From the NCBI GenBank assembly GCA_016218365.1, contig JACREF010000005.1, positions 130-64,129 of the forward strand: a stretch of DNA of 64,000 nt, given 5' to 3'. The notes below the pieces were generated by a model that did not search any database, was not told the origin of the DNA, and saw nothing but the letters and a program-made list of their open reading frames with translations. Positions 5,186 through 63,811 of the stretch are shown piece after piece. A program made the translations under genes and the position numbers. The first letter of the stretch is position 1, and each line of letters opens with the position of its first letter. This DNA comes from Gammaproteobacteria bacterium (lineage in GTDB: Bacteria > Pseudomonadota > Gammaproteobacteria > SZUA-140).

Positions 5186-5186
5186 A

Positions 5187-8389: not shown

Positions 8390-8452
8390 GACGCCGTCCT
8401 CATATGGGCTTACCTCCGCTGTAGCGGCAGCCCACGGCCAGACTTCAGTGGT

Positions 8453-9301: not shown

Positions 9302-9384
9302 GATCGCTACTCTTATGAAGGTTGACGGGCAATGCCTTAACGATTTATTAAGGATTTGTTCAAATGAATTATGATGTTACTTTA

Positions 9385-13281: not shown

Positions 13282-14535
13282 TCAATGCCCGGCTGTGACA
13301 CGCGCCACCATGTCATCAAGGGTTGTCCGAACATCCTGGCCGCGACGGGCCGCGGCAAAGGCCTGCCGCAACGCCAGCGCCAGTTGTGGATACTGTGCCC
13401 CGCGCCGCCAATCGATCACCGTGCTCTGCGCCAGCCGCTGCAACCGCTGCAGATTCGGATCACTGGCCATCAGCTGTGAACTGGACACTGCGCTGCGGGT
13501 GACCGGCAACGTACCGCTGCTGTCGGTGATGCGCAGCATCTCGGCAGGCTGCAGCAGGAATTCGATGAAGCGGATCGCGGCCCGCGGATCCTTGCAGCGC
13601 GTGGACAGCGCCCAACCCCAGTTGTCATGGACGCTGCGTATGCCATGGCCGAAATCCGGCAACGGCAGCACCAATAGATCATCAGCAGCGGCGGCCCGGT
13701 AACGCAGATAATGCGATTGATCAGCTATCGAGACCGCCACCCGCCCGTTGACAAACGCAAGGTCATCCCCGTTGCCATCGACACTGCCCTGCCGCAGCCA
13801 ATGCTGCAGCTGCGTCAACACCCGCACTGCACCCTCGTCATTCAGCGCCCCGCGGCTGTGATCGGCCAGCGCGTCGGCATTGATGTCGACACCGGCCGAT
13901 TGCAGCAGCGGCATCAACAGCGAACTGATCCAGTCATCACTCCGGTTTAACTGCAGATCGAGCACCGCATGATCGGCATCGTGTTCCGCCAGCCGCGCCA
14001 GCACCCGCGAGAATTCAGCCGCGCTCCAGCCCTGCCCCGCCGCCGGTATCATCACCCCGGCCGCCTGCAGCTGACTGCGCCGCACATACATCGCGATCAC
14101 CGCATCATCGCTGGCCACCTGATACAGATGCCCCTGGGACATGCCTTGCTGCATCACCTCCGGCAACAGATCCACCTGGGTCCCCTCGGTCAGCTGCTTG
14201 TCGAGTCTCAACAAGCGCTCGCCGGAGATGGCGCGGGAAAACAATGCGGCATCGACCTCCAGGATATCCGGCAAGCGGCCATCTGCCAGCGCGGCATTGA
14301 CCTGGGCATGATAATTACCGGCCGGCAACACCACAACGTTGATACGCTGGCGGCGCTGGCTGGCATTAAAGCGGGCGACCTGTCCCTGCAGCGTCTGCAG
14401 TCTGGCAGCGCTGCCGCCGTGCATCCACACCTCCAGTTCGGTGACAGCATGTGGCGCCTGCCGGTCCTCGTCACAGGCGACCAACAGACCGAAGGTGATG
14501 ACCAGCAACGGCCACAGGCAATACATTCTGTTCAT
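13282..14535 (-). CDS. Extracellular solute-binding protein (ABC transporter substrate-binding, family 1), lipoprotein
   Basis: Probable true start MNRMYCLWPLLVITFGLLVAC (lipobox) ~14535; ORF-track start 14664 is an extension; no cognate permease/ATPase adjacent. Confidence 0.65.
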   Translation of the reverse strand: MNRMYCLWPLLVITFGLLVACDEDRQAPHAVTELEVWMHGGSAARLQTLQGQVARFNASQRRQRINVVVLPAGNYHAQVNAALADGRLPDILEVDAALFSRAISGERLLRLDKQLTEGTQVDLLPEVMQQGMSQGHLYQVASDDAVIAMYVRRSQLQAAGVMIPAAGQGWSAAEFSRVLARLAEHDADHAVLDLQLNRSDDWISSLLMPLLQSAGVDINADALADHSRGALNDEGAVRVLTQLQHWLRQGSVDGNGDDLAFVNGRVAVSIADQSHYLRYRAAAADDLLVLPLPDFGHGIRSVHDNWGWALSTRCKDPRAAIRFIEFLLQPAEMLRITDSSGTLPVTRSAVSSSQLMASDPNLQRLQRLAQSTVIDWRRGAQYPQLALALRQAFAAARRGQDVRTTLDDMVARVTAGH

Positions 14536-14642
14536 CGACCATCCAGTTGTCAGCAACGGCGCATATCCAGCGCAGTGCTGTTGTTTTATACTCATTGCAT
14601 AGGTTATACATTTTTCCCCGCCACCAGAAGCAGGTCCGTCCG

Positions 14643-15503
14643 ATGAATCAGCTCGATGCCGCACAGATCAAGCAGGGACAGCAGCGCGACTGGAACAGTG
14701 TGGCCGGCGGCTGGGAACGCTGGTGGCCGGCGCTGGAGGCGGGTGCCGCCCATGTCAGTCAGCGGCTGCTCGACGCGGCCGCGGTGCGCAGCGGCGGCCG
14801 GGTCCTCGATGTCGCCACCGGCATCGGAGAACCGGCGCTCTCTGCCGCGCGGCGGGTAGGCGACACCGGACATGTGCTGGCTATCGATCAGGCGGCTGAC
14901 ATGCTGGCCATCGCCCGCCGCCGCGCCGCGACGGCCGGCGTCACCAACGTGGAATTTCTGCACAGTGACGGTGAAGGACTGCCGCCAGGGCTGCCACCCT
15001 TCGATGCCATCGTCTGCCGCTGGGGCCTGATGTTCTTCCCCGATCCGGGACAGGCGCTGCGCTCACTGCACCCGCTGCTGTTGCCGGGCGGCCGGATCGC
15101 CGCCACGGTTTGGTCGACAGCCGATCGCGTGCCATCGATCAGCCTGCCGCTGCAGATCGTCTCGGCGGTACTGGACCTGCCACCGCCACCACCGGGCCGG
15201 CCGAATCCATTCAGCCTGGCGGATCACGGCCTTCTCCACACGCTGTTTGCTGACGCCGGCTTCACTGACATCATTATTGATACCCTGCCGGTGACCTTCA
15301 CCATGCCATCGGCCGCGGACTATACCCGGTTTACACTGGATATCTCGGCACCGCTGGTCGCACTGCTGGCCGGTTATGACGAGACCCGACGCCAGCAGGC
15401 CATCGCTGCGATCACCGCCCGCATCGCCGGGCTCGCCGCGGCCGATGGCGCGATCAGACTGCAGAGTGAAGCCATCCTCATCAGTGCGATGCGCCCTATC
15501 TGA
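14643..15503 (+). CDS. Class I SAM-dependent methyltransferase
   Basis: Motif VLDVATGIGEPALSAA (motif I), LLLPGGRIAATVW; likely start MNQLDAAQIKQ at ~14643. Confidence 0.7.
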   Translation: MNQLDAAQIKQGQQRDWNSVAGGWERWWPALEAGAAHVSQRLLDAAAVRSGGRVLDVATGIGEPALSAARRVGDTGHVLAIDQAADMLAIARRRAATAGVTNVEFLHSDGEGLPPGLPPFDAIVCRWGLMFFPDPGQALRSLHPLLLPGGRIAATVWSTADRVPSISLPLQIVSAVLDLPPPPPGRPNPFSLADHGLLHTLFADAGFTDIIIDTLPVTFTMPSAADYTRFTLDISAPLVALLAGYDETRRQQAIAAITARIAGLAAADGAIRLQSEAILISAMRPI

Positions 15504-15523
15504 GCAGCTACACCCGGCGGCCA

Positions 15524-17416
15524 TTACCGGGCCTGGGCCGCGGTCAACAGATTCACGATCTCCTTGTAACCATTGCGCGTGGCCACGGCGAGCGCACTGT
15601 CGCCATGGGCCGCGCCCAGCCCGACATCGGCACCATGGGCCAGCAGGCGCCGCACCACCTCGGCATGGCCACCACGCGCGGCATGGATCAAGGCCGTCCG
15701 GCCTCCTTCATTGTTCGCCTGTCCATAGGGGCGGCTCTGACCATCGATGGCATTGACATCGGCGCCGCGCTGCAGCAACAGTTCGACGACGGTATCGTGA
15801 CCATTCATTGCCGCCAGCATCAACGGTGTCCGGCCCTCATTGTCCCGGCTGTCCACCACGCTGTCCTGGTCCAGCAATGCCGTCACCGCATCCAGATTAC
15901 CGTTGGCCGCAGACCAGGACAACGCGACCCGGCCCTGCGGATCGCGCAGGCCGGCATGGGCGCCACGCTGCAGTAACACCCGTACCGTACCCGCGTTGTT
16001 ATTCATCGCGGCCTCGATCAGCAAGGTGCGGGACTGCTCCTGGCGCAATATGCTGGCGATAAAGAAATCATTGTATTCAGTGGCGATCGGCAGATCGGGA
16101 TCGAGACCATGATCAAGCAGCAGTGTCATGATCTCGCTGTGGCCCAGCCGCGCCGCCAGCAGGCCCGGTGTCTCGGCCTGGCGATTCGGCAGATTGACGT
16201 CGGCACCATGGGTCAGCAGCAGATCGACCACGGCGCTGTGGCCATTGCGCACCGCCGTCAGCAGCGGTGTATCACCACGTCCGGCCTCACGCTGCAGCAC
16301 CTTGCTGCGCTCCGGCAAGGCCGCGTTCGCCAGCCGCTGTTCCGAGACCCCGCGGCCGGCACGGTTGACGCCGGCCCCTTCCTTGATCAGCATCCCGGCG
16401 ATCGTCAGATAACCCCTGGTGGCCGCCATCAGCAAGGCCGACACCCCCTGTTCCATCGCATCGGGATCGACATGGTTGTTCTGGCGGTTAGCCAGCAACT
16501 CCTGCACCTTCGGCTGGTCATTAAATTCGACGGCGCGCAGCAAGGCCTGGTTATTGTCCAGGCCGGCATAACGCCGGCCATCCCGCGCCCCGGCCTGATC
16601 GAGCACGGCTGCGATATCCAGATAACCGCGATCACGTGCCAGCGACAAGGCCGTGTCGCCGTTGGCCCGCTCCACATTGGGATCGGCACCCGCCGCCAGC
16701 AGCGCACGCACCATCGGCAGCCACTGCGCCCCGTCCTCACCCTGCACACCGTGCTGGGCGGCAAACATCAGCGGGGTAAAGCCGCGATATTCCTGACGGC
16801 CGGTGCGCAACGACAGATTGGGGTTGGCACCACGTTCCAGCAATTTGCTGACGATCGCCAGCTGGCCATATTTGACCGCGTAAAACAACGCATGTTCACC
16901 ATCGGCATTCCTGACATTGACGTCGGCCTTCGCCTCAAGCAGCGCATCGGCAATCGCGGCATCGCCGCGGGTGCTGACCACCATCAGTGCGGTCGTGCCA
17001 TCACGTGACTGGGCATTGACGTTGGCCCGGTGCTGCAACAGATCGCGAACGATGGCACGGTGACCGGCCCCGACCGCGGCCAGCAAGGCCGTATTGCCCA
17101 GCGCATCGCGGCCCTCGGTATCAACCTGCTGTTCAAGCAACTGATGGACCATCTCCTGCTGACCATACCGGGCGGCCATCACGAGCCGGGTGTCGCCCGC
17201 ACCATCCTCTTTCTGGGCGCTGTCTCTGCCCGATATGGCATTAGCCGGTGCGGCCCGCGCCGGTAGCTCCTCCACCTTGCCGGCGCGGAGCGCCTCGCGT
17301 TTGGCCAGGGCCTCGGACTTGATCCGCTCGGCAACACGGTTGTCCACGGTGCTGCAGCCAGCCAGTGCCACGAGCACCAGCAGCACGATACAACGCAGTG
17401 GCAGGCGGCAGGTCAT
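15524..17416 (-). CDS. Ankyrin-repeat lipoprotein (>=14 ANK repeats)
   Basis: 630 aa; signal peptide + lipobox LAGCST; repeated G-TALM/L-AA--GH---V--LL--GADVN units throughout. Confidence 0.8.
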   Translation of the reverse strand: MTCRLPLRCIVLLVLVALAGCSTVDNRVAERIKSEALAKREALRAGKVEELPARAAPANAISGRDSAQKEDGAGDTRLVMAARYGQQEMVHQLLEQQVDTEGRDALGNTALLAAVGAGHRAIVRDLLQHRANVNAQSRDGTTALMVVSTRGDAAIADALLEAKADVNVRNADGEHALFYAVKYGQLAIVSKLLERGANPNLSLRTGRQEYRGFTPLMFAAQHGVQGEDGAQWLPMVRALLAAGADPNVERANGDTALSLARDRGYLDIAAVLDQAGARDGRRYAGLDNNQALLRAVEFNDQPKVQELLANRQNNHVDPDAMEQGVSALLMAATRGYLTIAGMLIKEGAGVNRAGRGVSEQRLANAALPERSKVLQREAGRGDTPLLTAVRNGHSAVVDLLLTHGADVNLPNRQAETPGLLAARLGHSEIMTLLLDHGLDPDLPIATEYNDFFIASILRQEQSRTLLIEAAMNNNAGTVRVLLQRGAHAGLRDPQGRVALSWSAANGNLDAVTALLDQDSVVDSRDNEGRTPLMLAAMNGHDTVVELLLQRGADVNAIDGQSRPYGQANNEGGRTALIHAARGGHAEVVRRLLAHGADVGLGAAHGDSALAVATRNGYKEIVNLLTAAQAR

Positions 17417-17422
17417 CGCGCC

Positions 17423-17743
17423 TCAGTACCTCGGCATGTCAGGATCGACACTGCACGCCCAGGCATCGACACCACCGCTCAGATTGAACACATTGGTGAA
17501 ACCCTGCTGCTCAAGAAACATTGCCACCCGCATGCTGCGCCCGCCATGGTGGCAGATCACCACCAGCTCCTGGTCGGCATCCAGTTCACTGACCCGTGAC
17601 GGCACCTCGCGCATCGGGATATTGACCGCGCCGATGATATGGCAGATCTCGAATTCAAAGGGCTCCCGGACATCGAGCAACAACGGCGGCCGGGCGGCCG
17701 CACTCAATGTCTGCTGCAACGCCGCTGGCGTCATTTCCTTCAT
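17423..17743 (-). CDS. Rhodanese-domain sulfurtransferase (GlpE-like, single domain)
   Basis: 106 aa; LLDVREPFEF, active-site loop VVICHHGGRS. Confidence 0.85.
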   Translation of the reverse strand: MKEMTPAALQQTLSAAARPPLLLDVREPFEFEICHIIGAVNIPMREVPSRVSELDADQELVVICHHGGRSMRVAMFLEQQGFTNVFNLSGGVDAWACSVDPDMPRY

Positions 17744-17834
17744 CTCTACCCTCCACGCTACAGACCCGCTACACTAAAATGGGGTAAGCTGGCCACTAAT
17801 CAACCGCGCACCATCAACCCACGGAAGCCACACC

Positions 17835-18110
17835 ATGATCCTAAATTATCAGGAAGACCTGGTAAAGCAGGCCTTGCAGGAGATGATCAGCAGCCTGGAC
17901 CTGTCGCTCGCCATCGACAGCATCGAAGACATCAGCTGCCTGGCGCTGAACAGGTTGCCGGCACGTTACATCCGCCATCGGGTCGACAATACCTTTTATA
18001 TGACGATCGGTGAACAGCAGCGTTTGCAACAGGCCGCCCGCCGTGCGGTGCTCGAGGCCTGGCAATTCATCAATCAGCCCGGCAGCCGCAAACCTGAATC
18101 GCAGACCTGA
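17835..18110 (+). CDS. Small protein, possibly ComFB-like (late competence development protein family)
   Basis: 91 aa; ...CLALNRLPARYIRH... resembles ComFB ALN-LPP-YV signature; weak. Confidence 0.4.
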   Translation: MILNYQEDLVKQALQEMISSLDLSLAIDSIEDISCLALNRLPARYIRHRVDNTFYMTIGEQQRLQQAARRAVLEAWQFINQPGSRKPESQT

Positions 18111-20614: not shown

Positions 20615-22039
20615 ATGACGACACCCCCGATCTGCGCCGGCAAGTTCTGCCATAACGTCGAGGCCATGGTCGACAAGGCCATCGCCGCCCTCGACATCGA
20701 CACCGGCGTCGCCGCGGCGATCAAGACCTGCCACTCGGTGTTACAGGTGAGGTTTCCGGTCAAAATCCGTGGAAAGATTGAAGTTTTCACCGGCTGGCGC
20801 GCGGTGCACAGCACCCATCGGCTGCCGGCCAAGGGCGGCATCCGTTATGCGCCGATCGCCGACCAGGACGAGGTCGAGGCGCTGGCGGCGCTGATGACCT
20901 TCAAATGCGCCGTGGTCGATGTGCCGTTCGGCGGCAGCAAGGGCGCGCTGCATATCGACCCGAAACACTATAACCGCGAGGAGATGGAGGCGATCACCCG
21001 CCGCTTTGCCGTCGAGCTGGCGCGCAAGGACTTCCTGAACCCGGCGACCAATGTACCGGCCCCGGACGTCGGCACCGGCCAGCGCGAGATGGCATGGATC
21101 GCCGACACCTACAAGCATCTGCACCCCGAGGACATCAATCATCTGGCCTGTGTGACCGGCAAACCGGTGCACCACGGTGGCATCCGTGGCCGCGTCGAGG
21201 CCACCGGCCGTGGCGTGCAATATGCGCTGCGCGAGTTCTTCCGCCACCCCGAGGACGTGGCCCGGGCCGGGCTGAGCGGCACGCTCGACGGCAAGCGCAT
21301 CGTCATCCAGGGTCTGGGCAACGTCGGCTATCATGCCGCGAAATTCCTGTCAGAGGAGGATGGCGCAGTCATCATTGCCGTCATCGAGCGCGACGGCGCC
21401 GTGATCAACGATGATGGTCTGAATATCGAAGAGCTGTACCGGCATATCGTCGAACACAAGACGATCCAGGGCTATCACGGCGGCCGCTTTGTCGCCGACG
21501 GCCTGCCGGTGCTGGAACTGCCCTGTGACCTGCTGATCCCGGCCGCACTCGAAGGCCAGATCACCGCCGCCAATGCCGGGCGCATCCAGGCCCGGATGGT
21601 CGTCGAGGCCGCCAACGGCCCGTGCACCTTCGAGGCCGACACCATCCTGAACCAGCGCGGCATCCTGGTACTGCCCGACATCTATATCAACGCCGGTGGC
21701 GTCGTGGTGTCGTATTTCGAATGGATACGCAACATCTCGCACATCCGCTTTGGCCGCATGCAGCGCCGCCTTGAAGAACAACAGGGTGACCGGCTGACGA
21801 CGGTGCTGGAGCAGGTCACCGGCACCCGTCTCGATGACACGATGCGGGCACAGATCAGCCGCGGCGCCGACGAGATCGACCTGGTGCGCTCCGGCCTCGA
21901 CGACACGATGCGGCTCGCCTACCAGGAGATGCGCCAGGTCTGGCATCACAACCCCAAGGTCCACGACCTGCGCACCGCCGCCTTCGTCATCGCCGTCGAA
22001 AAGATCGCCCGCTCCTACCTCGACGTCGGGCTGTTCTGA
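20615..22039 (+). CDS. gdh: Glu/Leu/Phe/Val-family glutamate dehydrogenase
   Basis: FGGSKGALHIDP catalytic-Lys motif, GLGNVGYHAAKFL Rossmann motif; start probably MTTPPICAG ~20615. Confidence 0.85.
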   Translation: MTTPPICAGKFCHNVEAMVDKAIAALDIDTGVAAAIKTCHSVLQVRFPVKIRGKIEVFTGWRAVHSTHRLPAKGGIRYAPIADQDEVEALAALMTFKCAVVDVPFGGSKGALHIDPKHYNREEMEAITRRFAVELARKDFLNPATNVPAPDVGTGQREMAWIADTYKHLHPEDINHLACVTGKPVHHGGIRGRVEATGRGVQYALREFFRHPEDVARAGLSGTLDGKRIVIQGLGNVGYHAAKFLSEEDGAVIIAVIERDGAVINDDGLNIEELYRHIVEHKTIQGYHGGRFVADGLPVLELPCDLLIPAALEGQITAANAGRIQARMVVEAANGPCTFEADTILNQRGILVLPDIYINAGGVVVSYFEWIRNISHIRFGRMQRRLEEQQGDRLTTVLEQVTGTRLDDTMRAQISRGADEIDLVRSGLDDTMRLAYQEMRQVWHHNPKVHDLRTAAFVIAVEKIARSYLDVGLF

Positions 22040-22265
22040 GCCTGTCCTGAGTAGCGACATAGTCGCGTATCGAAGAGCCTGTCCTGAGTAGCGACATAGT
22101 CGCGTATCGAAGGGCCTACTCACCACGAACGGCTCCATCTACCCGTTCATCCTGAGTAGCGCTGCGTAGCAGCGCGTATGGTTCGATACGGCGCTGCGCG
22201 CCTACTCACCATGATCGGTATATGTTAGGGCCTGAGTAGCGACATAGTCGCGTATCGAAGGACCC
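22040..22265. repeat. REP/BIME-like array (same family as 4925-5185, opposite orientation units CCTGTCCTGAGTAGCGACATAGTCGCGTATCGAAG)
   Basis: Direct reading; starts immediately after gdh stop. Confidence 0.75.
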
Positions 22266-22324
22266 ACCTTGACACCGTCCCGCCCCACCGCTATCATTCC
22301 AATACTCTTTGGAATGATAGCACC

Positions 22325-27889: not shown

Positions 27890-28255
27890 CGTCGGGCTGT
27901 CCTGAGACGCCCCCGTTCGTCCTAACGGGTGTTCCTGTTCCATGGCAGGTGTGGGCCGTTCGTCCTGAGTAGTGCTGCGCAGCAGCACGTATCGAAGGGT
28001 CGCCCTGAGTAGCGGCAGCATGCCTGGTATCGAAGGGCAGTAGCGCCGTCCATGGTTCGATACGGCACTGCGTGCCTACTCACCACGAACGGTCTCCTCC
28101 TCCCCGCCCGTCCTGAGTAGCGACATAGTCGCGTATCGAAGGGCCTACTCACCACGAACGGGTGTTCCTGTTAGTTCCATGGCAGGTGTGGACCGTTCGC
28201 CCTGAGTAGCGGCCAACGGCCGCGTATCGAAGGACCGCATATCCCCCACCAAAAC
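27890..28255. repeat. REP/BIME-like array (largest copy cluster; mixed orientations)
   Basis: Direct reading: GTCCTGAGTAGCG...CGTATCGAAGG and GCCTACTCACCACGAACGG units repeated ~8 times. Confidence 0.75.
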
Positions 28256-38274: not shown

Positions 38275-38525
38275 TAATTGGGGTCAGAGTAAAAACTCTC
38301 TGGCTACTAATTTTGGTCAGAGTAGCGGGTAGCCTGGGTTGAGCGACAGCGAAACCCGGGTTTCACTCCGTTCAACCCAGGCTACCTCCTATCAAAAACA
38401 CTTAAGTAAGTACCATTCGGGTCAGAGTAAAAACTCTCTATACTATTCCGTTAGCGGAGGCGATGTTAGAAAAGTTTTTACTCCAATTTAACCCCAATTT
38501 ACCATTTACAATTTACCAATTTACG
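38275..38525. mobile_element. MITE-like element, family 1 (copy 1): terminal inverted repeats GGGGTCAGAGTAAAAACTCT.../...AGAGTTTTTACTC, internal long hairpin GGTAGCCTGGGTTGAGCGACAGCGAAACCCGGGTTTCACTCCGTTCAACCCAGGCTACC
   Basis: Direct reading; near-identical copies at ~42555-42745 and ~54140-54400; related short form ~52545-52650. Confidence 0.7.
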
Positions 38526-39699: not shown

Positions 39700-39870
39700 T
39701 AGGGAAGCTCCGATCAATTCAAAAATTACCACAGCCGTCATTCCCGCGAAAGCGGGAATCCAGGTGTTCCAAGTATTTATGGATGCCCGCTGGAGCCTGC
39801 CCTCGACCTCGATCGGGGGCGGGCATGACGACAATTCGAATTAATTCAGAGCTTCCCTGCATTAACACGA
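39700..39870. mobile_element. MITE-like element, family 2 (copy a): TIRs ...CTCTGATTAATTCAAAAATTACCACAG / ...ATTCGAATTAATTCAGAG; internal hairpins GTCATTCCCGCGAAAGCGGGAATCC and GCCCGC-N-GCGGGC
   Basis: Direct reading; copies at ~51775-51900 (truncated), ~63660-63811 (perfect TIRs), fragment ~48478-48548, TIR-only palindromes ~26866-26893 and ~40548-40600. Confidence 0.7.
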
Positions 39871-42554: not shown

Positions 42555-42745
42555 CAGCAGTAAAAACTCTTCTCTATACTGGTGAGATAGAGTTTTTACT
42601 CTGACCAGAATGGCACTTACTTAAGGAGGTAGCCGGCGGGTAGCCTGGGTTGAGCGACAGTGAAACCCGGGTTTCACTCCGTTCAACCCAGGCTACCTCC
42701 TATCAAAAACGCTTAAGTAAGTACCATTCTACTCTGATCACAAAC
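42555..42745. mobile_element. MITE-like element family 1 (copy 2), with full ~120-nt palindrome GAATGGCACTTACTTAAGGAGGTAGCC...GGCTACCTCC...CTTAAGTAAGTACCATTC
   Basis: Direct reading. Confidence 0.7.
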
Positions 42746-42747: not shown

Positions 42748-43074
42748 CTACGCCCCGGGCGGCTGGTAGGCGATCGCCTGCGCGCGGCCAAGCGCGCTTA
42801 AGGTCTCCTCGACTGTCAGCAGCGGCGTCGTCTCGAATTTCGACAATGCGCCACCGCCTCCGATCGAGATTGCGACTGCGGCCATCGAGACATTGTCAGG
42901 CGCTTCCCAGAGGGTGTAGCCATCGTAGGTGCCGAATGCGTACCAGAAGCCGTGCAGCTTTCCGCCGACCGACTCGATGTACGTGCGTGCCGCCGCGCGG
43001 CGGTCTTCGGGTTTCTTCGTCAAACGGCTCCAGGTCTCAGGGGTATAGCTGAAGCGAGTTAAATAGAAAGCCAT
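42748..43074 (-). CDS. GYD-domain protein
   Basis: 108 aa; MAFYLTRFSYTPETWSRL...GGKLHGFWYAFGTYDGYTLWEAPD is the GYD family signature. Confidence 0.85.
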   Translation of the reverse strand: MAFYLTRFSYTPETWSRLTKKPEDRRAAARTYIESVGGKLHGFWYAFGTYDGYTLWEAPDNVSMAAVAISIGGGGALSKFETTPLLTVEETLSALGRAQAIAYQPPGA

Positions 43075-43189
43075 GGCAGCAATCCTCCTTCCGGTGTGCG
43101 CGATGTTTGCGCTATGGTGTTATCCATTACTCTGCCAGCGCAGACATGATGCAGAGCGGCTTGAGTTTCAAATTCATGCGGCGGCGACA

Positions 43190-43978
43190 TCAATCCTTCG
43201 TCGCAACCAGTGAGATGCTCTTCACGCCATATTTTCGCGCCGCACCCTGGGCGTTCTCTGAAATGAACAGGTACTGCGGGTTGTCCCTCAATTTCGTCAC
43301 GCGCAACCCCGCCGCCTCGATCGCCGAGGTGTAATCACCGATCTGCATCGCGCCCCCGATGCACGCGGCCCACAGCGTCGCGTCGCAGGTGATGCCTTCA
43401 GGCAGCGGCGCTTCAGTGACGATGTCGGCGAGGGCAAGCCGCCCGCCCGGCTTGAGCAGGCGCGCGGCCTCGCGGAAGACCGTCCTTTTGTCCGGTACGA
43501 GATTAATCACGCCGTTGCTGATGACCGCATCGCACGACGCGTCAGCAAGCCCGGTCGCGTCGATGTAGCCCTTGCGGTAGGTGATGTTGCCGAGTCCCGC
43601 GGCGGCACGCAGGCGTTCCGATTTGGCGAGCTGTTCATCGGTCATGTCGACGCCGATTACGGTGCCCGTCTTGCCGACCTTGCCGGCGGCGATGAAGCTG
43701 TCCGTCCCCGACCCGCTGCCCAGATCGACCACCGTCTCGCCCGGCTTCAGATGAGCGAGGTCAAAGTAATAGCCCACACCCGCAAACGAGGCGATGGCTG
43801 CACTCGGGATGGCATCGAGGTCGGCGGGCACATAGCCAAGCCGCTCCGCGAGCGCACGGCCCATTTCGAAGTGGAACTCGCCAAGCGGATCGAGGGCCAC
43901 ATCGCGATACATCGCCTTGACCTTCTGCTCGAGCGCGGCTGTGTCGACGCGCTTTGCGTGTACTGTTGCAGTATCCAT
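43190..43978 (-). CDS. ArsM-like class I SAM-dependent methyltransferase (Methyltransf_31)
   Basis: [13 protein letters not shown] motif I, conserved Cys residues (ASCD, TCD) as in arsenite methyltransferases; probable start MDTATV. Confidence 0.7.
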
Positions 43979-44239
43979 TTTGATTCCTCCCATCGGTGGT
44001 GGAGCCCGTAAGAGATTATAGTGCGAGCATCGGCTCCGATACGCTCACCGAACATTGCGCTTGAGGCAGGCGTGTTGCAACGCACCACACGTCACTCTCG
44101 AAGCGCTTGATAGGCGCCTGCATAGGCTTACAGATGTGAAAGTGCATTTTGCACAACCTGAGCCACAGATTCTTCACGTAAAACCTTCCGCTTGCAATAC
44201 CTTGACTGAAGCCACTCTTTTGGTTACTTAGAATCAAAA

Positions 44240-44318
44240 GATATCAAAAGGGGCGGATTCTATTGAAATGATAGATACTCACCAGCCCTGGGTATACGAT
44301 TTCAATCGAATCTGACCC
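44240..44318. repeat. 78-bp direct repeat copy A (AAGATATCAAAAGGGGCGGATTCTATTGAAATGATAGATACTCACCAGCCCTGGGTATACGATTTCAATCGAATCTGACCC), left boundary of low-GC island
   Basis: ~95% identical copy at ~49340-49416; internal 14-bp inverted arms GATTCTATTGAAAT / ATTTCAATCGAATC. Confidence 0.8.
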
Positions 44319-44319
44319 T

Positions 44320-44405
44320 TTTGCTCTTTTCGTCCTGACCCTTTTGCTCTTTTCGTCCCGATTATTCGTCTCCCGATTACGCGTCCCGATTACGCCCGCC
44401 GCGAT
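44320..44405. repeat. Short tandem repeats: 2x CCCTTTTGCTCTTTTCGTCC then ~4x CCCGATTACGC(G) units
   Basis: Direct reading immediately inside island boundary. Confidence 0.7.
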
Positions 44406-44418
44406 TACGCCGCGTTCC

Positions 44419-44862
44419 TTAATAAATACTCTTGGCAGCCTTCTTCTTTGGCGACTCAATATTCGCACGCGAAGGATCATGGAAAAAGTGCTGGCAGTGC
44501 ATGCATCGCCAACCGGTAATTTCATTCTTGAGCGGAGTAACGATCTTTGTTGCTCGGCACTTTGCACAGTATCTGAGCGCAGTGAAGTGACTTACCCATG
44601 TTCCTGTCGGTTCATCCCATTGGAGCCAAGGGCGCTGAAGGAACAAGAATGCAAATAGAACCAAGCACAGCGACAGCAATAGTGCCAATAGTTTTAGGAC
44701 TGTCGTTGGCTGTTGTGCTTCCAGGGATGCCAATCGTGGCGCCAGGCTATCTTGGAGAAGCAGCACAATTCCTGGCGGTGTCGTGGCTAATAGAATCAGC
44801 GCTAGTGGCAACCACCACTTTTTTAGAAATTCACCAAGGGGCATCATTTGGGACCCTAACAC
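44419..44862 (-). CDS. Hypothetical membrane protein with C-terminal CxxC...CxxC zinc-ribbon (island cargo)
   Basis: 147 aa; two hydrophobic helices then ...YCAKCRATKIV...WRCMHCQHFFHD; low-GC codon usage distinct from flanks. Confidence 0.4.
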   Translation of the reverse strand: MLGSQMMPLGEFLKKWWLPLALILLATTPPGIVLLLQDSLAPRLASLEAQQPTTVLKLLALLLSLCLVLFAFLFLQRPWLQWDEPTGTWVSHFTALRYCAKCRATKIVTPLKNEITGWRCMHCQHFFHDPSRANIESPKKKAAKSIY

Positions 44863-44925
44863 GTTTGAGTTCAGCGGCGCGCCGCTTTTTGGCGCGTCCG
44901 CTGGAACGATTTGTTAGCGGCATTT

Positions 44926-45663
44926 TCACCGAAGTCTCGCGGCCTCTGCGGCAACGTGGCCAGCCAGAGCCGTGACAAATGTTCTGAGTCCTGTCATCGC
45001 CGACATCTCTGAAAACTCACCACTCTCAGCAGAACTGCGGGGCGACGTGATGAGGGCGGCAGTGGTGTAAAGCTGTTCCTTTACCAATTTCTGACAGAGT
45101 AAGTCATACCGGATGAGGTACGACGCCCCCTTAAACTCCTTGAAAACAGGAAAGTGCGGTGACGAATCCCTAACCGCACATCTGGATTTTGGGGCATCCT
45201 CAACCATCATCAACCAGCCAACGAAAGGGCGTGGTTGTTTGCCAAATGCCTCTTCACGGTAGGCTGTCCAGAGATCGTGCGCGGTGCCAATGGCTTCCTC
45301 GGTTCGATTGTTGAAGTTGTTCCCGAACGAGCCAACTTGGCTTTTCAGCTCGATGGCCGCGATCAACTCGCCTTTGTAGATGACAAGAAGATCCCAGAGC
45401 TTTGTCGGCCTGAAGTAGCCGGGCAGTGTCAGCATCGCCCTGTTCCGATGAATCTCGGCATGGGCAAGTCCATTGGCCCGCACGATGTCGAGTACCAAAG
45501 CCAGGAATCCGTCCATGTTCTTGCCAGCGGTAACACCAGCGCGCTCACCTTGGTCAGCCTTCCCGGACTCAATCTGCTTTTGTCTCGCTGCTTCCCGGTT
45601 TCCCCAGAAGGCTTTTACAGCCTCATGTGCCTTCTGTTCGTAATCGACAAGATCAAGCGCCAT
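44926..45663 (-). CDS. Type II restriction endonuclease, XhoI/PaeR7I-like
   Basis: 245 aa (R.PaeR7I is 246 aa), start overlaps stop of upstream N6A-MTase gene as in the PaeR7I R-M operon (M then R); family assignment by recollection of fold/size, not by alignment. Confidence 0.5.
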
Positions 45664-47403
45664 TTATTCTCCGTTGCCTCCAAGGGAGGATCGTTCTTCG
45701 TTGCTAAGTCCAAATAGTTTAAATACTGCGCGATTGCAGGCTTGCAAATCTCTCTTTTTTGCAGCGTCCGCTAGCTCCGTCCGCAACTTTGTCGAGACAT
45801 CCGCCCATTGCGGAATGCGGATGCGACGTAGGTATTGCGCCTGAAACCGGAGGAATCCGCCGCGCATTTTGGTTGAGTAGGTCGTCATGAATAGACGTGT
45901 AACGGCTGAAAGCATCACAGCTTGTAATGCCCTCAAGTCCCACTCGTCGGACGTGACATAGTAAAGGTTGTGGTGCGGGTACAGCTCCCCACCCTCAAAA
46001 ACTATATGGGCCTCGCCCTTGATGTCGGGAATCAGGAGCTTCGGCCTCGATGCCAGCTCTGGAGTAATACGGTCGATCGTGCGATACCAGTTGGCCGGGG
46101 TCTTCTGGGCGCAGTGACGACCCACGATAACCTCTCGTCGCACCTCCAAATAGCGGAGCAGGCGCGGATAGTTCCGTAACTCGACAAGACCGCCACCCTC
46201 GGCAAATGGATTGATTACGCCTTGGCCGTGCCATTGCACCTCGCCGGACATAATGTCTTTCGTTGTAACCAGCGGCAGTTTGCGATCAGACTCCACGTCG
46301 AGTGCGTCAAAGTCGCCGATATATGCCTTATCCGCGCCAGTTGCTACGCCGATACCCACCTTGCAGCCCACCTCTTCCAATCTAGGGAATTGTTTTTCAA
46401 GGCGGCGAATCAGCGCCATCTGATCCGACGATTCAAGCAACCACGGCTCCGACCCATTGGTGACTCGTGCCAGTTCGCGCACCGGCCCGGGTTCTTTCGG
46501 CAGGCTCCGCGCACGTAGCGTGTCGGCCAAGATCGCCAGCGTGGCCTGGTCGATGGTAGGGCGATGAGCAATGCGCGTCGCACCGGGTGTATCCCTGCTG
46601 ATGACGGTGATGGCCGGATAGGCGATCACCTCGGAGTGGAACGCTGGGGTGTCCATCATATCGACGTAGATTTTCAGGTGGAACTGCTCAGCCACGAGAC
46701 TGCGAAGCGGACCACCGTAACGGTTTTTCATCCAGCGATCTGCGCAAATAAAGCCCAAGCTGCCGCCTTGTTTGAGCACCATTAACGACCGCTCGATGAA
46801 CGGAATGTAGATGTCGGCCCGGTCATACATCGTCTGGTAGCGGCTACGGTACTCGGCCAGCAACGGTGTTGGAATCAGCTCTTGGCGAACATAGGGAGGG
46901 TTCCCTACAACAAAGTCGAATTGCCCTTCAAGTGGTGCAAGAAGGAAATCCCCCTGCACAAGCCAACGATCAGCAAGAGCTACTGCGGATTGATCCCCTA
47001 TCTCATCTTGCTTGAGCCGCTCGATCACGGCTGCGCGGGTGGTAGAAAAGGTCTTGCGATGCAGTTCAACAGCGCGAATTGCGTCGCCTAACTCTTCAAC
47101 TACAGTTCCTGCGTGTTGCGATGACCTCCATGCTGCCAGCAGTCGCCCGATTGCTGGTAATAGAAAGTCACCCCCACCGAATGAAGGTTCTAAAAGTCGT
47201 TTTTCATGGAGCGGTTGATCCTCCGTGTAGCCAGCCAAATCGAGGATGAAATCCACCACCTCGGTGCGTGTAAAGATTGCCCCGCGAGATTCGGCTCCTG
47301 CTGCTGTAGACAATTTTTCAATCGCAGCAGCGACCATAGGCGAATGTGTGCAAACCGAATCACCAAATAAATCAAAATTAAGCTGCCTTGATGCCAAGTT
47401 CAT
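45664..47403 (-). CDS. Type II N6-adenine DNA methyltransferase (gamma class, Eco57I/PaeR7I-M-like)
   Basis: 579 aa; catalytic motif [13 protein letters not shown], motif I region [12 protein letters not shown]; upstream partner of the endonuclease. Confidence 0.8.
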
Positions 47404-47458
47404 ATTCCTATTTGATCTGTGCTTATTGCTCGACTAGCCGCTAACGTAAATTAGCTGG

Positions 47459-47857
47459 CTACGCACCATCTACGGCTTTCTTTATTGCGTCAAAGGTGAA
47501 GGACATGGCCCATTTCGCGCCGACATTTAGCAAACCTGAAGGTGTGGTATTTTGAGAATCCGTTTTTACAGCAACGATCTTCCTCTTGAGTTCGACAGCC
47601 TTGCTAATCTCCCAGGCAACCCATTTACTTATATTGGTTTTTTTCCCAACGATACACAGAAAATACGTCGCATTATTTATCTTCGCGGAGATGGCCCGCT
47701 TTATTGCAGCAGCATCCGTGCTGTCAATCGAAACGTCTGCTGAATGATCGGTGAAACCAAAGTCAAACTCTTTGTTGGCATCCCATGCCAGCAGCATGTT
47801 TTTGTAGTTCCGGTCGTTATCGTAATCGTAGCTAATGAATATCGTTTTCTTAGCCAT
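47459..47857 (-). CDS. TIR-like domain protein (DUF1863/MTH538-type)
   Basis: 132 aa; MAKKTIFISYDYDND...AIKRAISAKINNATYFLCIVGKKTNISKWVAWEI pattern of DUF1863 TIR-like domains; overlaps preceding SLATT gene by ~8 nt. Confidence 0.6.
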   Translation of the reverse strand: MAKKTIFISYDYDNDRNYKNMLLAWDANKEFDFGFTDHSADVSIDSTDAAAIKRAISAKINNATYFLCIVGKKTNISKWVAWEISKAVELKRKIVAVKTDSQNTTPSGLLNVGAKWAMSFTFDAIKKAVDGA

Positions 47858-48341
47858 GTTGTTTCTCTTTTTCGTTAGTGATATGTGCCCAAGTTGTGTT
47901 TTCTTTCGAAATTACGCCTTCCACGCGCTCGACGAGCGCGTGGAAGGCGTCATCTTCGTTATATGGCGATGTCTTTGTCATATAGAGGAATTTCTCGTGC
48001 TTGAGCGTTTCCGCCACCGTTCGGTACTCAATCCAGTTCTCTTGGAATTTATATAAGGTCACCAGACCGGAGATCACAGCAACGCAAACCGCTATTACGC
48101 CAACAATACCCTTGAGGTAATGCGTGTCGTTAGTGATTTCACTTACAAAAAACGGGATGCTCATTGCAAACACAATCTCAAGTACGCGGAGCCCTCTAAA
48201 CCATTTCTGGTTCCATTGACTCTTCTGTCCGTACCAGGCAATTTGATCATCGAGCCGATCTCGAATGTACTCTTCTGGTGACATGCGTACTCCTGTTGTT
48301 TTGCCGCTAACAGTATTTAGACGGCCGCCGCCTAGCATCAA
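47850..48341 (-). CDS. SLATT-domain protein (DUF4231, predicted 2-TM membrane effector)
   Basis: 163 aa; MSPEEYIRDRLDDQIAWYGQKSQWNQKWF, two TM helices (VLEIVFAMSIPFFV / IVGVIAVCVAVISGLV), ...YRTVAETLKHEKFLYMT; start may be internal M (MSPEEY). Confidence 0.6.
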   Translation of the reverse strand: MMLGGGRLNTVSGKTTGVRMSPEEYIRDRLDDQIAWYGQKSQWNQKWFRGLRVLEIVFAMSIPFFVSEITNDTHYLKGIVGVIAVCVAVISGLVTLYKFQENWIEYRTVAETLKHEKFLYMTKTSPYNEDDAFHALVERVEGVISKENTTWAHITNEKEKQHG

Positions 48342-48577
48342 CCGATTTGTTGTTGATCACTTATATGTCCAGCGTATAGAAGAGCGCAGTATGGCGCAAG
48401 ATCCCGGAGGAACATGGCATCTTCGCAGCGGGACATTGAGCGGCGTCACGACATGATAGGCCGCCAGCATGGCATAAACCTGCCAACTGGACTCCCGCTG
48501 CAGCCTGCCCTCGACCTCGATCGGGGGCGGGAATGACTCCTGGAGAGCGAGGCAATAACGGCAACGGGCTAATCCCT

Positions 48578-49340
48578 TTATCGGTCACGGCGCAGCCGGC
48601 CCAGCCCTTCCAGCAGCCGGTCGATACGGCCCCACAGCTGTTCACGCAACCGCGCAGCCAGCCCGCGCTGATGCCAGTCTGGATAGCGGATCTCGATGCA
48701 GTCACGCAGATCACCGTCGATGACCGCACAAACTTGGTCGGCGAACGGCTGATCATCGATCTCCTGATTGGCCTCCAGATTCCAGTGCAAGTTCCAGCGG
48801 TCGAAGTTGCTGGAGCCGATCGACACCCAGTCATCGCAGATCACCGCCTTGGCATGCATGAAGCGCGGCTGATATTCAAACACCCGCACGCCGGCACGCA
48901 GCAGCGGGCTGTAGAAGCGCCGCCCGGCATGGGCGATTGCTGGGTGGTCGCTGACCGGGCCGGGCAGCAGCAACCGGACATCGACACCGCGCTGCGCCGC
49001 CTGCCGCAATGCGCGCAGCGTGCGCCGGGATGGCACGAAATAGGCGGTCATCAGCCAGATGCGGCGCTCCGCGCCTTGCAGCCGGTAGTACAATGAACGG
49101 CGGATGTCCTGCACCCGCAACGCGACCGTTGACGCCATCGGTGACGGTTGCATCTGTGATATTGATACTTGAGTCAATCGGCGTGATCGGGCTGCGGTGC
49201 TGCTCGCGCCACACCTGCATGAACAGCGCCTGCCAGTCGACCAGCACTGCGCCTTCGATGCTGAGCATGTGCTCGCGCCAGCTGCGTTGCGGCCGGCGCG
49301 GGTGGTCAAAGTCATCGCTGAGGCCGGCGCCGCCGACAAG
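48578..49340 (-). pseudogene. 3' fragment of cardiolipin-synthase-like phospholipase D gene (second HKD domain intact, upstream part frameshifted, N-terminus missing)
   Basis: C-terminal FMHAKAVICDDWVSIGSSNFDRWNLHWNLEAN HKD motif in ORF 48578..49369; preceding cls-like segment IEGAVLVDWQALFMQVWREQ lies in a different frame (ORF 48876..49268); no first HKD; abuts repeat B. Confidence 0.6.
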
Positions 49341-49416
49341 ATATCAAAAGGGGCGGATTCTATTGACATGAGAGATACTCACCAGCCCTGGGTACGATTT
49401 CAATCGAATCTGACCC
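49340..49416. repeat. 78-bp direct repeat copy B, right boundary of low-GC island
   Basis: AAGATATCAAAAGGGGCGGATTCTATTGACATGAGAGATACTCACCAGCCCTGGGTACGATTTCAATCGAATCTGACCC. Confidence 0.8.
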
Positions 49417-49629: not shown

Positions 49630-50643
49630 TTACCTTGCTTGGGTTTTTGCCCGGTACTCTGTGTAAACTTTATTTAAACCGGCCTTCAAGGCTACACGAG
49701 CCTGCCAGCCCAGCCCCGATAAACGGGTGACATCCAGCAGTTTGCGTGGCGTGCCGTCCGGCTTGCTGGTATCAAACACCAGCTTGCCTGAGAAACCAAC
49801 GACCTCCTTGATCTGCTCGGCCAGCTCGCGGATCGTCAGGTCCTCGCCGCAGCCGACATTGACCAGTGGCAGCGTTGCAGGATTAACTTGTGAACTGAAC
49901 TGATCATCCGGCAGGTTCATCAGATAGACGCAGGCATCGGCCATGTCGTCGCTGTACAGGAACTCGCGGCGCGGTGTGCCGCTGCCCCACACCACAACCT
50001 CGTTGTCACCGCGCTGTTTGGCCTCATGCATCTTGCGGATCAGTGCCGGCAATACATGGGAGGTATTCAAATCAAAATTGTCGCCGGGCCCGTACAGGTT
50101 GGTCGGCATCACCGCCAGGTATTGGGTGCCATACTGGCGGTTATACGACCAGCACATCTCGATGCCGGCGATCTTGGCGATCGCATACGGCCGGTTGGTA
50201 GTCTCCAGCGGTCCGGTCAGCAGATACTCTTCCCTGATCGGTTGCGGGCAGTCACGCGGGTAGATGCACGAGGAGCCGAGAAACAGCAGCCGCTTGACGC
50301 CAACCCGCCATGCCTCATGGATGACATTGGTCTGGATTACCAAGTTCTGGTGGATGAACTCGGCCGGATAGGTGTTATTGGCGAGGATGCCGCCGACCTT
50401 GGCGGCGGCCAGGAACACGTAGTCCGGCCGCTGCGTTTCAAAAAATGCCCGCACCGCCTGCTGGTCGGTCAAGTCGAGTTCGGCGTGGCTGCGGGTGATG
50501 ATGTGGGTGTAGGGTGCCGTCCCCTCTCCCCGGCCCTCCCCCCGCAGGGGGGAGGGGGACGTAGCGGATGCCAGACGACGCAGCAAGGCCGAACCGACCA
50601 GGCCGCGGTGACCGGCGACATAGATGCGTGCATCCGGATTCAT
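49630..50643 (-). CDS. fcl: GDP-L-fucose synthase
   Basis: 337 aa collinear with E. coli Fcl ([41 protein letters not shown]); contains a ~17-aa in-frame low-complexity insertion near N-terminus. Confidence 0.9.
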
Positions 50644-51774: not shown

Positions 51775-51900
51775 TAATGTATGGGAAACTCTGATTAATT
51801 CAAAATTACCACAGCTGTCATTCCCGCGAAAGCGGGAATCCAGGTATTACAGGACGTTGTGGATGCCCGCTTCATGATGCCTGCTTCCAATTTGTGATTA
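51775..51900. mobile_element. MITE-like family 2, truncated copy b, flanked by ~35-bp direct duplication of the gmd start/leader (GCCCGCTTCATGATGCCTGCTTCCAATTTGT)
   Basis: Direct reading: left TIR and CATTCCCGCGAAAGCGGGAATCC hairpin present, right end replaced by repeat of 51740-51775. Confidence 0.65.
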
Positions 51901-52544: not shown

Positions 52545-52650
52545 GAAAATTGGGGTCAGAGACCAATTTTTGCTAATCCACGACACCCGATCATTATATC
52601 GATAAAAAATTGGTCTCTGACCCCAATTTTGCCAATTTTAAATTAATCTG
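52545..52650. mobile_element. Short MITE-like element with ~25-bp perfect TIRs (AAATTGGGGTCAGAGACCAATTTTT ... AAAAATTGGTCTCTGACCCCAATTTT), related to family 1 ends
   Basis: Direct reading. Confidence 0.6.
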
Positions 52651-54139: not shown

Positions 54140-54400
54140 AGTAAAAAATAAATTGGGGTCAGTAAATTGGGGTCAGAGTAGAATGGCACTTACTTAAGGA
54201 GGTAGCCGGCGGGTAGCCTGGGTTGAGCGACAGCGAAACCCGGGTTTCACTCCGTTCAACCCAGGCTACCTCCTATCAAAAACGCTTAAGTAAGTGCCAT
54301 TCGGGTCAGAGTAAAAACTCTCATCTCAAATATTCCTGACACAAATATGCCGCTAGAGTTTTTACTCTGACCCCAATTTTCCCCAATTTTCCAATTTTTT
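54140..54400. mobile_element. MITE-like family 1 (copy 4, full length with both TIRs and ~120-nt palindrome)
   Basis: Direct reading. Confidence 0.7.
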
Positions 54401-60194: not shown

Positions 60195-60365
60195 CCCTGT
60201 CATTAACCGCCGTCCATGGTTCGATACGGCGCTCGAGCCTGCCCTGAGTAGCGGCACAGCCGCGTATGGTTCGATACGGCGCTGCGCGCCTACTCACCAC
60301 GATCGGCCTCATCCTCCCCGTTCGCCCTGAGTAGCGATGCGTAGCATCGCGTATCGAAGGGCGAC
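60195..60365. repeat. REP/BIME-like array (4th locus)
   Basis: CCTGAGTAGCG...CGTATGGTTCGATACGGCGCTGCGCGCCTACTCACCACGATCGG units. Confidence 0.75.
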
Positions 60366-63659: not shown

Positions 63660-63811
63660 AGAACCTCTGATTAATTCAAAAATTACCACAGCCGTCATTC
63701 CCGCGAAAGCGGGAATCCAGGTATTACAGGCCTTTATGGATGCCCGCTGGAGGCCTGCCCTCGACCCGATCGGGGCGGGCATGACGACAATTCGATTAAT
63801 CAGAACCTCTC
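63660..63811. mobile_element. MITE-like family 2 (copy c) with perfect TIRs GAACCTCTGATTAAT / ATTAATCAGAACCTCTC, inserted between pheA stop and DAHP-synthase start
   Basis: Direct reading. Confidence 0.7.

Follow-up and report, generated by a model that had tools for sequence, protein, structure and literature searches.

How a small set of defence genes came to lie between two almost identical palindromic repeats, in a region without an integrase, is the question raised by positions 44,240 to 49,416 of the DNA studied here. This DNA is a 64,000-nt stretch (the window) of contig JACREF010000005.1, which belongs to a metagenome-assembled genome (MAG) of a gammaproteobacterium from the lineage SZUA-140. 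Between the repeats there are a restriction-modification (R-M) gene pair of the PaeR7I/XhoI type, a pair of genes for a SLATT and a TIR protein, and a gene for a zinc-ribbon protein. An earlier note had proposed that the repeats define and mobilise this unit as a defence islet. Our analysis points elsewhere: the segment is likely an eroded cluster of integron cassettes, and the flanking repeats are probably bystanders that did not deliver the cargo. Since no integrase is present in the window, the cluster would resemble the CALINs (clusters of attC sites lacking integron-integrases).

Cargo genes and cassette borders

The genes and sites on which this proposal is based are the following (window coordinates).

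44419-44847, minus strand: small zinc-ribbon protein with two hydrophobic helices and a C-terminal CxxC...CxxC (121 representative homologues)
44919-44854, minus strand: canonical integron attC of the R-M cassette, with the layout R''-L''-VTS-L'-R' (VTS, variable terminal structure)
44926-45663, minus strand: XhoI/PaeR7I-family type II restriction endonuclease (Pfam PF04555, E 8e-104; PADLOC REase_II, 1e-126; so named also at NCBI)
45664-47403, minus strand: Eco57I-type N6-adenine DNA methyltransferase with NPPY motif, partner of the endonuclease (Pfam, PADLOC)
47437-47458, minus strand: vestigial, internally deleted attC fusing the Thoeris and R-M cassettes (CCAGCTAA, TTTAC, G|TTAGCGGC)
47459-47857, minus strand: thsB, ThsB-type TIR protein (Pfam PF08937, 1.2e-20; PADLOC ThsB; alignment to PDB 6LHY/9B7D)
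47850-48284, minus strand: thsH-like SLATT protein (DUF4231/SLATT_1) with two transmembrane (TM) helices (PF14015, 2.5e-24; PF18181, 7e-15)
48303-48324, minus strand: vestigial 5' border site of the fused cassette (CCGTCTAA, ATACT, G|TTAGCGGC), at which the homology to contigs L017, L018 and L020 starts

Every module border, read in gene orientation, is a G|TTAGC or a GCTAAC core. The attC behind the R-M pair is composed of R'' CGCTAAC, AAATC, L'' GTTCCAGCGG, the stem-loop [ACGCGCCAAAAAGCGGCGCG], L' CCGCTGAAC, TCAAAC and G(TG)TTAGGG, and the attC sequences printed in PMC12614218 parallel this layout. Its bottom strand folds with -21.5 kcal/mol (z -5.3), leaving one extra or bulged base in the L stem (in L''), and its R and L stems are separated by an internal loop. 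The R'' sequence and the cassette start GTTAGCG (47445) are exact reverse complements of each other, as cassette circularisation demands, and a compensatory change is seen in the lineage of contig L021, in which GTTAGCT goes together with AGCTAAC. For the Thoeris module, R'' and cassette start are complementary at 6 of 7 positions.

The two other sites are remnants. From the stop codon of the TIR gene to the start of the methylase gene nothing is left but CCAGCTAA-TTTAC-G|TTAGCGGC, which upon comparison with contig L016 corresponds to an attC minus its interior. With the site at the 5' border, the tally for the cluster is one intact attC and two vestigial sites of the form R''-5 nt-R'. For comparison, CALINs and SALINs (single attC sites lacking integron-integrases) are defined in bioRxiv 10.1101/2024.07.02.601686, and the default threshold of IntegronFinder for a CALIN is at least two attC sites. 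The zinc-ribbon gene follows the R-M attC directly; its own attC is absent, and tandem repeats and the left hairpin repeat are found there instead. Upstream of the fused cassette, positions 48331-48360 (GATCAAC-AACAAATCG-G|TTGATGCTA) possibly represent a further vestigial site. Its first 10 nt equal the start of a 559-aa cassette that follows the SLATT-TIR pair in L017 (~905-920), which hints at an extra cassette that was almost wholly deleted.

Neither a recombinase nor a transposase domain (Phage_integrase included) was detected by Pfam in the approximately 50 open reading frames (ORFs) of at least 120 aa in the window; a motif scan was also negative, and ARAGORN revealed no tRNA or tmRNA. 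The absence of integrase, recombinase and tRNA noted earlier thus holds. The attI/intI platform of a complete integron is also missing, with no integrase within the 64 kb.

The cassettes have their borders at G|TT cores, and the same cassettes occur in other arrays and contexts. Our comparison set consisted of 12 cargo loci (L013 to L024), and the modules are shared at 87-94% nucleotide identity with at least nine other contigs. The R-M pair without Thoeris is present in seven of them (L013-L015 and L021-L024; 87-91.5% nucleotide identity), each time with unrelated neighbours. In the window this homology extends from 47445/47447 (or 47404) to 44913, 44897 or 44861. Its 5' border lies at the core in L015 and L021-L024 and its 3' border in L013; in L013 and L014 the homology begins at the ATG, not at GTTAGC. 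The SLATT-TIR pair was found in L017 (91% nucleotide identity), and the limits of the Thoeris homology are 48311/48319 and 47451 in L016 and L017. The fused junction of Thoeris and R-M (CCAGCTAATTTACGTTAGCGG) is identical in L018, L019 and L020, with 92.6-94.5% identity across the junction. Upstream of the fused block the context differs from that in the window, and in L018 it consists of a gene for an alpha/beta hydrolase and 780 nt of non-coding DNA. From this junction, shared by three contigs whose upstream sequences differ from that of the window, it follows that the block is maintained or moves as a unit.

In L021 and L022, the R-M pair is part of an array of small cassettes (HicA/HicB, antitoxin) with homogeneous attCs. 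In L017, a GCCTAAC...GTTAGGT and an ACCTAAC...GTTCGGC attC are located beside a second SLATT-TIR pair, and in L013 a GCCTAAC...GTTAGGC attC is located upstream. In L015 the R-M cassette lies between pabC- and mltG-like genes. Insertion of cassettes at genomic attG sites outside integrons was described by Loot et al. 2024, as cited in PMC12614218, and an insertion of this type would fit the placement in L015. The region upstream of the fused block in L018 was considered as an intI/attI platform and rejected, as it harbours no integrase remnant. An IS110-like fragment after the attC in L013 was not confirmed by Pfam and was dropped.

When the loci are compared, the same cassette genes carry different attCs in different hosts, and the switch is located precisely after R'' GCTAA(C) (window, 44913; L021, 4205-4270; L016, ~9277-9340; L017, ~875-915). 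The window has its attC type in common with L013 and L015, and the type of L021-L024 is homogeneous within the array in which they lie. In the window, L016 and L017 the SLATT-TIR module, too, diverges directly behind GCTAA(C). A switch after R'' is not predicted by the normal IntI exchange at R', and it may bear on the question of how attCs are acquired or homogenised. The TIR gene in L016, the product of which clustered with the window TIR at a protein identity of at least 90% (90.3% at the nucleotide level), is accompanied by only 33 nt of the SLATT gene. It is cargo of a Tn7-like element (TnsB, TniQ/TnsD; 3312-9277 and 9534-18048), in the vicinity of other TIR, TPR-S and queuosine-type genes.

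The cargo inventory given earlier (R-M, SLATT and TIR, zinc-ribbon, minisatellite, and fragments of cls and of a MITE, a miniature transposable element with inverted repeats) was confirmed by Pfam, PADLOC and repeat comparison. The Glu in the motif WVAWEI of the TIR protein aligns with that of WVRYEI in ThsB of B. cereus (6LHY/9B7D). In the SLATT protein, the hydrophobic helices comprise residues 32-50 and 57-79. The thsH-like and thsB genes overlap by 8 nt, the effector gene preceding the TIR gene. The aligned Glu of the TIR motif is presumably the catalytic E85 of ThsB. According to a preprint of December 2025, an operon of TIR and SLATT genes constitutes type VII Thoeris, in which an infection leads ThsB to make canonical cyclic ADP-ribose and the membrane is thought to be breached by the SLATT effector ThsH (bioRxiv 10.64898/2025.12.03.692087). 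By its composition, a two-gene operon for a ThsB-type TIR and a SLATT protein with two TM helices, and by the conserved TIR Glu, the pair in the window appears to fit this type. It differs in that it is known here from sequence, in the position of the effector gene with its 8-nt overlap, and in the integron cassette context, which is unmentioned in the preprint.

The other system shares with PaeR7I/XhoI a full-length XhoI-family endonuclease adjoining an Eco57I-type N6A methylase, in the order M then R, and the gene pair is 76% identical at the nucleotide level to plasmid-borne PaeR7I-type pairs in Aeromonas, Pseudomonas and Klebsiella. What differs is that CTCGAG is here a predicted target, and that its count in the window, 16 where 18.6 would be expected, shows no depletion; avoidance of CTCGAG as a mark of long residence was therefore discarded. 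The zinc-ribbon protein gave no match in Pfam, PADLOC or PDB. Since there are 121 representative homologues of similar length, the best with 57% identity over the full length, we regard the predicted ORF as a genuine gene of a conserved family of approximately 125-155 aa. It is seemingly unannotated at NCBI, since the accessions jump from MBI5449879 to MBI5449880 across the ORF.

The composition of the cargo is foreign. The GC content at third codon positions (GC3) is 0.50-0.61 in the five cargo genes and 0.70-0.90 in native genes, and the overall GC content amounts to 48.9% in the zinc-ribbon ORF, 54.6% in the R-M genes and 45.2% in the TIR and SLATT genes. That the cargo is horizontally acquired defence DNA, as proposed earlier, is in line with our results; it has no recombinase of its own, so any mobilisation would occur in trans.

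The cluster is lodged in the far end, rich in repeats, of a polysaccharide gene cluster (lapB, manC, cysC, gmd, fcl and the ugd remnant), and we envisage it as follows. The first cassette (~48310 to 44859, minus strand) would be a fused unit of 3.45 kb comprising thsH, thsB, the deleted attC, the methylase and endonuclease genes and the intact attC. The second one, located downstream, would consist of the gene for the zinc-ribbon protein with its two TM helices and would have lost its attC. Judging from family membership, the R-M pair would cut unmethylated incoming DNA, probably at CTCGAG, while upon infection ThsB would make cyclic ADP-ribose and ThsH would breach the membrane, leading to abortive infection. 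An IntI integrase, with folded attC sites as its substrate, would have moved the cassettes, and the integrase gene may reside elsewhere in the genome or may have been lost. Deletion of the inner attC would lock both defence systems into one mobilisable unit.

The flanking hairpin repeats

The repeats and the features adjoining them are listed here; R1 is a covariance model built from the members of the hairpin family.

44238-44323, plus strand: left copy of the hairpin repeat, 78-86 bp, complete; similar to repetitive extragenic palindromes (REPs) and MITEs; R1, 83 bits
44312-44395, no strand assigned: two short tandem arrays (minisatellites), 23 nt x2, starting inside the 3' arm of the hairpin, and 13 nt x3.1
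48578-49337, minus strand: 3' remnant of cls (PLD-type), 5'-truncated at the right hairpin and frameshifted; GC 64.9%, GC3 0.74
49338-49416, plus strand: right copy of the hairpin repeat, between the cls 3' and ugd 5' remnants; R1, 65 bits
49417-49570, minus strand: 5' remnant of ugd (MKIAIAGTGYVGLSNAMLLA*...) with an in-frame stop, 3'-truncated at the right hairpin

The two direct repeats of 78 bp with about 95% identity that were described earlier are real, with their ends shifted by 2 nt. In 81 aligned columns the copies (44238-44318, the repeat proper of the left copy, and 49338-49416) differ by 2 substitutions and one 2-nt indel, and their longest identical runs are 29, 24 and 20 nt. In shuffled sequences, 0.14 chance matches are expected for a 17-mer of the repeat and 0.00 for a 22-mer. 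No third close copy exists elsewhere in the window. The palindromic nature had also been noted, with arms of 14 bp; the hairpin exists, but its arms are longer. In the left copy, in which the hairpin extends to 44323, they measure 25 nt, CAAAAGGGGCGGATTCTATTGAAAT (44245-44269) pairing with ATTTCAATCGAATCTGACCCTTTTG (44299-44323), and the fold has a dG of -18.9 kcal/mol (z -5.6). The terminal TTTTG (5 nt) of the hairpin is missing from the right copy. A distant relative is located at 52546-52630 between cysC and manC (GGGAAAATTGGGGTCAGAGACCAATTTTT ... AAAAATTGGTCTCTGACCCCAATTTTGCC; R1, 40 bits).

The family to which these copies belong consists of imperfect palindromes of approximately 80 bp in intergenic regions, with conserved arms (ATCAAnGGGGTCAGATTCGATTGA) and a variable loop. 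In six members the arms pair at 90.6% of the positions, and at 6 pairs both sides have changed, mostly outside the bases fixed by the search pattern. A pattern demanding both arm cores matched two Nitrosospira genomes, the only genus hit in the genome collection, and a few metagenome contigs; these matches have the same arms and unrelated loops. The central 22-mer specific to the element had zero matches in the metagenome collection, and plasmids and viral contigs yielded no match to the element either. No copy shows a target-site duplication. With R1, 4 copies in 4 kb were found in Nitrosospira sp. Nl5 and 3 copies in 3 kb in a Nitrosospira MAG.

Nitrosospira contig L003, four hairpin copies in 4 kb: 910-987, 2509-2588, 4189-4269 and 4794-4873
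Nitrosospira contig L002, three hairpin copies in 3 kb: 493-551, 875-909 and 3327-3423

The copies in Nitrosospira sp. Nl5 separate small accessory genes in mixed orientation (DUF4385, NUDIX, SRPBCC, glyoxalase), and no canonical attC was found near the Nitrosospira hairpin clusters. Among the Nitrosospira copies there are short forms of 59 nt and 35 nt, which retain the outer arms only (ATCAATAGGGTCAGA...TCTGACCCTATTGAT).

A check for a dispersed element showed that the family is multi-copy and clustered in Nitrosospira; the window harbours only the two copies and the distant relative. Because the family is multi-copy and clustered in Nitrosospira, two copies at a distance of 5 kb are unremarkable. 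Judged by its known members, it behaves as a clustered intergenic repeat of the REP/MITE type, and the spacing in the window would be within its usual habit. The size of 80 bp, the imperfect palindrome, the intergenic location and the clustering are shared with REPs, with the mosaic elements composed of them (BIMEs) and with MITEs. The difference is that here tandem duplications straddle the ends in several genomes, and that we found no Rfam family (zero matches of the hairpin repeats in Rfam), no parent insertion sequence (IS) and no RAYT-type transposase.

These short tandem duplications span hairpin ends in independent genomes. In the window, 23 nt are duplicated at the 3' end (44312-44358 region) and ATCAAAAG at the 5' end (44228-44247); L003 has ATTGATTGTACAC twice at a 3' end (~970-1000), and L002 has TGATCAATAG twice at a 5' end (~3312-3337). 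They could be an insertion footprint or result from replication slippage at the hairpin. Two other identities of the repeats were considered and rejected. The hairpin is not an attC, since AAC...GTT cores are absent on both strands and the Nitrosospira clusters are of mixed orientation without canonical attC. Att sites derived from a tRNA, or a structured RNA, are not supported either, as ARAGORN revealed no tRNA or tmRNA in the window and the repeats had no Rfam match.

The ugd remnant just outside the right repeat comprises the first approximately 50 codons, so that the hairpin joins two different genes, cls and ugd, both decayed and both native-like in composition. An arrangement of this kind is not made by simple insertion, and therefore the hairpin must mark, on either side, the end point of a deletion or rearrangement. 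The hairpins thus participate in local rearrangement and helped to erode the locus, and the foreign DNA does not have its edge at the right repeat. The GC profile agrees with the latter point. The segment had been described as AT-richer than its surroundings, which is correct for the heterogeneous interior between the repeats as a whole (54.1% against 60.8% in the window). However, the low-GC tract reaches from ~44.0 to 48.4 kb, and in 200-nt windows native GC is regained near 48,400, approximately 0.9 kb inside the right repeat; the last 0.9 kb is the cls remnant.

Could the hairpins nevertheless delimit a mobile defence islet? The cargo might have been moved as a MITE-bounded composite by a transposase acting in trans, or a circular intermediate might have recombined by homology with a resident hairpin, duplicating it. 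The 95%-identical direct copies bracket all foreign genes, the terminal inverted repeats of the hairpin show compensatory changes across the family, and the right copy, lying at the junction of two unrelated truncated genes, suggests that the repeats join rearrangements. There is also a precedent, since in Acinetobacter integrons were truncated and moved by identical MITEs of 439 bp at both ends (PMC3934969). Like these MITE-flanked integrons and like integron mobilisation units, the segment is transposase-less integron DNA between small direct elements with terminal inverted repeats. Unlike them, it lacks 5-bp target duplications and recurrence at different loci, and it includes 0.9 kb of native DNA. 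We found no shared 3-10-mer around either copy or around the pair (outer flanks ..TTAGAATCAA and ACTGCTGCC..; inner flanks TTTTGCTC.. and ..GCCGCCGAC), with the caveat that the right copy is shortened by 5 nt. Moreover, the exact hairpin core and model R1 were both without a match in all 12 cargo loci, so the modules and even the fused block occur elsewhere without the hairpin. In Nitrosospira the family is clustered at similar spacing around unrelated genes. No parent IS or transposase with ends matching the inverted repeats was detected in the window, in plasmids or in viral contigs. Taken together, we consider an islet delimited by the hairpins unlikely.

The proposal that the 78-bp repeats define and mobilise the unit is thus not borne out, as the cargo has its own attC and G|TT sites and is found elsewhere without the hairpin, the right copy lies between decayed native-type genes and apart from the GC boundary, and there is no target-site duplication. 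Because the hairpins are absent from the cargo loci, clustered in Nitrosospira, devoid of a target-site duplication and separated from the GC boundary by 0.9 kb, we regard them as probable bystanders in the acquisition of the cassettes. In E. coli, approximately 20-29 nt is the minimal identity for RecA-dependent recombination. With identical runs of 20-29 nt, the hairpin pair could in principle delete the 5.1-kb segment by this type of homologous recombination.

Strengths and weaknesses of the cassette interpretation

The interpretation as an eroded cassette cluster can be compared with what characterises integron cassettes and CALINs. In common are the co-oriented, promoterless modules, the G|TT borders, the attC after the R-M pair and the lack of an adjacent intI, as well as the compact defence cargo and the presence of the same cassettes in true arrays elsewhere. 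The differences are that here one attC is intact and two are internally deleted, that two systems share one cassette of 3.45 kb, and that the cluster is located among decayed native genes and not in a long array.

Several observations weigh against this interpretation. Only one attC is intact, and the two vestigial sites were read by eye. No IntI is encoded within the 64 kb, according to the motif scan and the Pfam search mentioned above. A loose custom attC scan performed no better on the window than on shuffled sequences, and a strict one missed the attCs of L021. Behind R'' of the Thoeris module, each context has another sequence, something not predicted from the way an attC ordinarily behaves. 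Finally, the left hairpin is located exactly where the attC of the zinc-ribbon cassette would be expected, and the hairpin pair brackets the whole cluster, so that the hairpins may have had a part in moving the block en bloc. The custom attC scanners, being either too unspecific or too insensitive, were discarded as evidence.

The attC-like features might also be coincidental, and the R-M and TIR-SLATT genes might be ordinary defence-island genes that were gathered by illegitimate or homology-facilitated recombination without any integron. In favour of this, there is a single well-formed site and no integrase in the window, the loose scan is equally productive in shuffled sequence, and the R-M homology of L013 and L014 begins at the ATG. 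Coincidence is difficult to reconcile, however, with the breakpoints of at least six independent contigs, which fall on G|TTAGC or GCTAAC, and with the covariation of R'' and cassette start. Further, the same genes are found together with typical cassette cargo in arrays that have several canonical attCs, and both the architecture of the site and its fold match attC in detail. We therefore consider this explanation very improbable.

Equally doubtful, in our estimation, is that the hairpins, characterised by their arms ATCAAnGGGGTCAGATTCGATTGA, are recombination sites of an undescribed system other than the integron, which would bracket and shuffle small accessory modules, and not passive repeats of the REP/MITE type. 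An enzyme of that system, acting on the hairpins, would then mobilise the 5.1-kb unit en bloc. This would fit the four copies that separate cassette-like genes in Nitrosospira and the pair that brackets the defence cluster in the window. It would also fit the replacement of the last cassette's attC by the left copy, and the tandem duplications at the hairpin ends, which could be an insertion footprint.

Lastly, a chimeric join caused by the repeats, with the bracketed arrangement existing in no single cell, might be suspected in a MAG and when an independent Logan contig of the left flank ends at 44106, approximately 130 nt before the left repeat, but it is hardly credible given that the copies differ at 4 positions and so were assembled separately, that an 80-bp repeat is shorter than a read, that three independent assemblies show the same fused Thoeris::R-M junction, and that the exact endonuclease and porin proteins are also present in Logan assemblies.

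Surroundings of the cluster and implications

The native flanks offered little for comparison. No relatives of Fcl and of the porin with at least 90% identity were found in the collection, and exact-protein look-ups of the flanks yielded nothing beyond a 1.2-kb contig. On the left side, an arsenite-methyltransferase-like gene, arsM, is located at 43178-43980, which matches L006 (8625-9421) and L007 (9927-10729) with homology limited almost exactly to the ORF. Its flanks are free of attC-like sites. As an anchor for an empty-site comparison arsM was rejected, since it is a mobile single gene that is 89-90% identical at the nucleotide level in unrelated contexts. The adjoining gene for a GYD-domain protein (42748-43074) has relatives with at least 90% identity in Chloroflexota MAGs. 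The variable region may extend to the left as far as the repeat at 42589-42745.

The part of the window from 38 to 55 kb is rich in other repeat families. At least four further families were observed, concentrated around the polysaccharide genes, among them a 146-nt MITE-like repeat, a 115-nt repeat and a REP-like repeat with GTAGCG heads.

38289-38434, 42600-42745 and 54173-54318: further repeats, first group
39704-39818, 51784-51898 and 63661-63775: further repeats, second group
4939-5179, 22035-22280, 27956-28161 and 60208-60361: further repeats, third group
48488-48537, no strand assigned: fragment of another repeat family (MITE fragment, family D9), 92% identical to 39780-39829

The octamer GGGTCAGA, which is located at the ends of several repeat families, occurs 11 times in the window against 1.7 times expected (6.5-fold). 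The fcl gene (49630-50643), encoding GDP-fucose synthase, contains, in comparison with E. coli Fcl, an extra in-frame stretch of approximately 16 residues at ~50506-50568. This stretch resembles a REP-type repeat that was inserted into the gene and is translated.

Integron cassettes and CALINs that carry defence systems have already been described (bioRxiv 10.1101/2024.07.02.601686 and 10.1101/2024.07.02.601719), as have type VII Thoeris, PaeR7I-type R-M and MITE-flanked integrons. The cassette in which Thoeris and R-M are fused is, with its setting, a new case of described things, not a new kind. The locus also illustrates a trap for annotation: when no integrase is present, conspicuous repeats are easily taken for the mobility device, while the G|TT and attC signatures explain the borders better. 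For the systems themselves, the predicted type VII Thoeris and the PaeR7I-type R-M pair appear to have been welded together by the loss of an attC, so that the two immune systems would now move or stay together, and the same fusion exists in three other assemblies. For the host, represented by an autotroph-like MAG with CbbQ/CbbO and sulfur-oxidation genes, the cluster would be an environmental example of integron cassettes as vehicles of phage defence.

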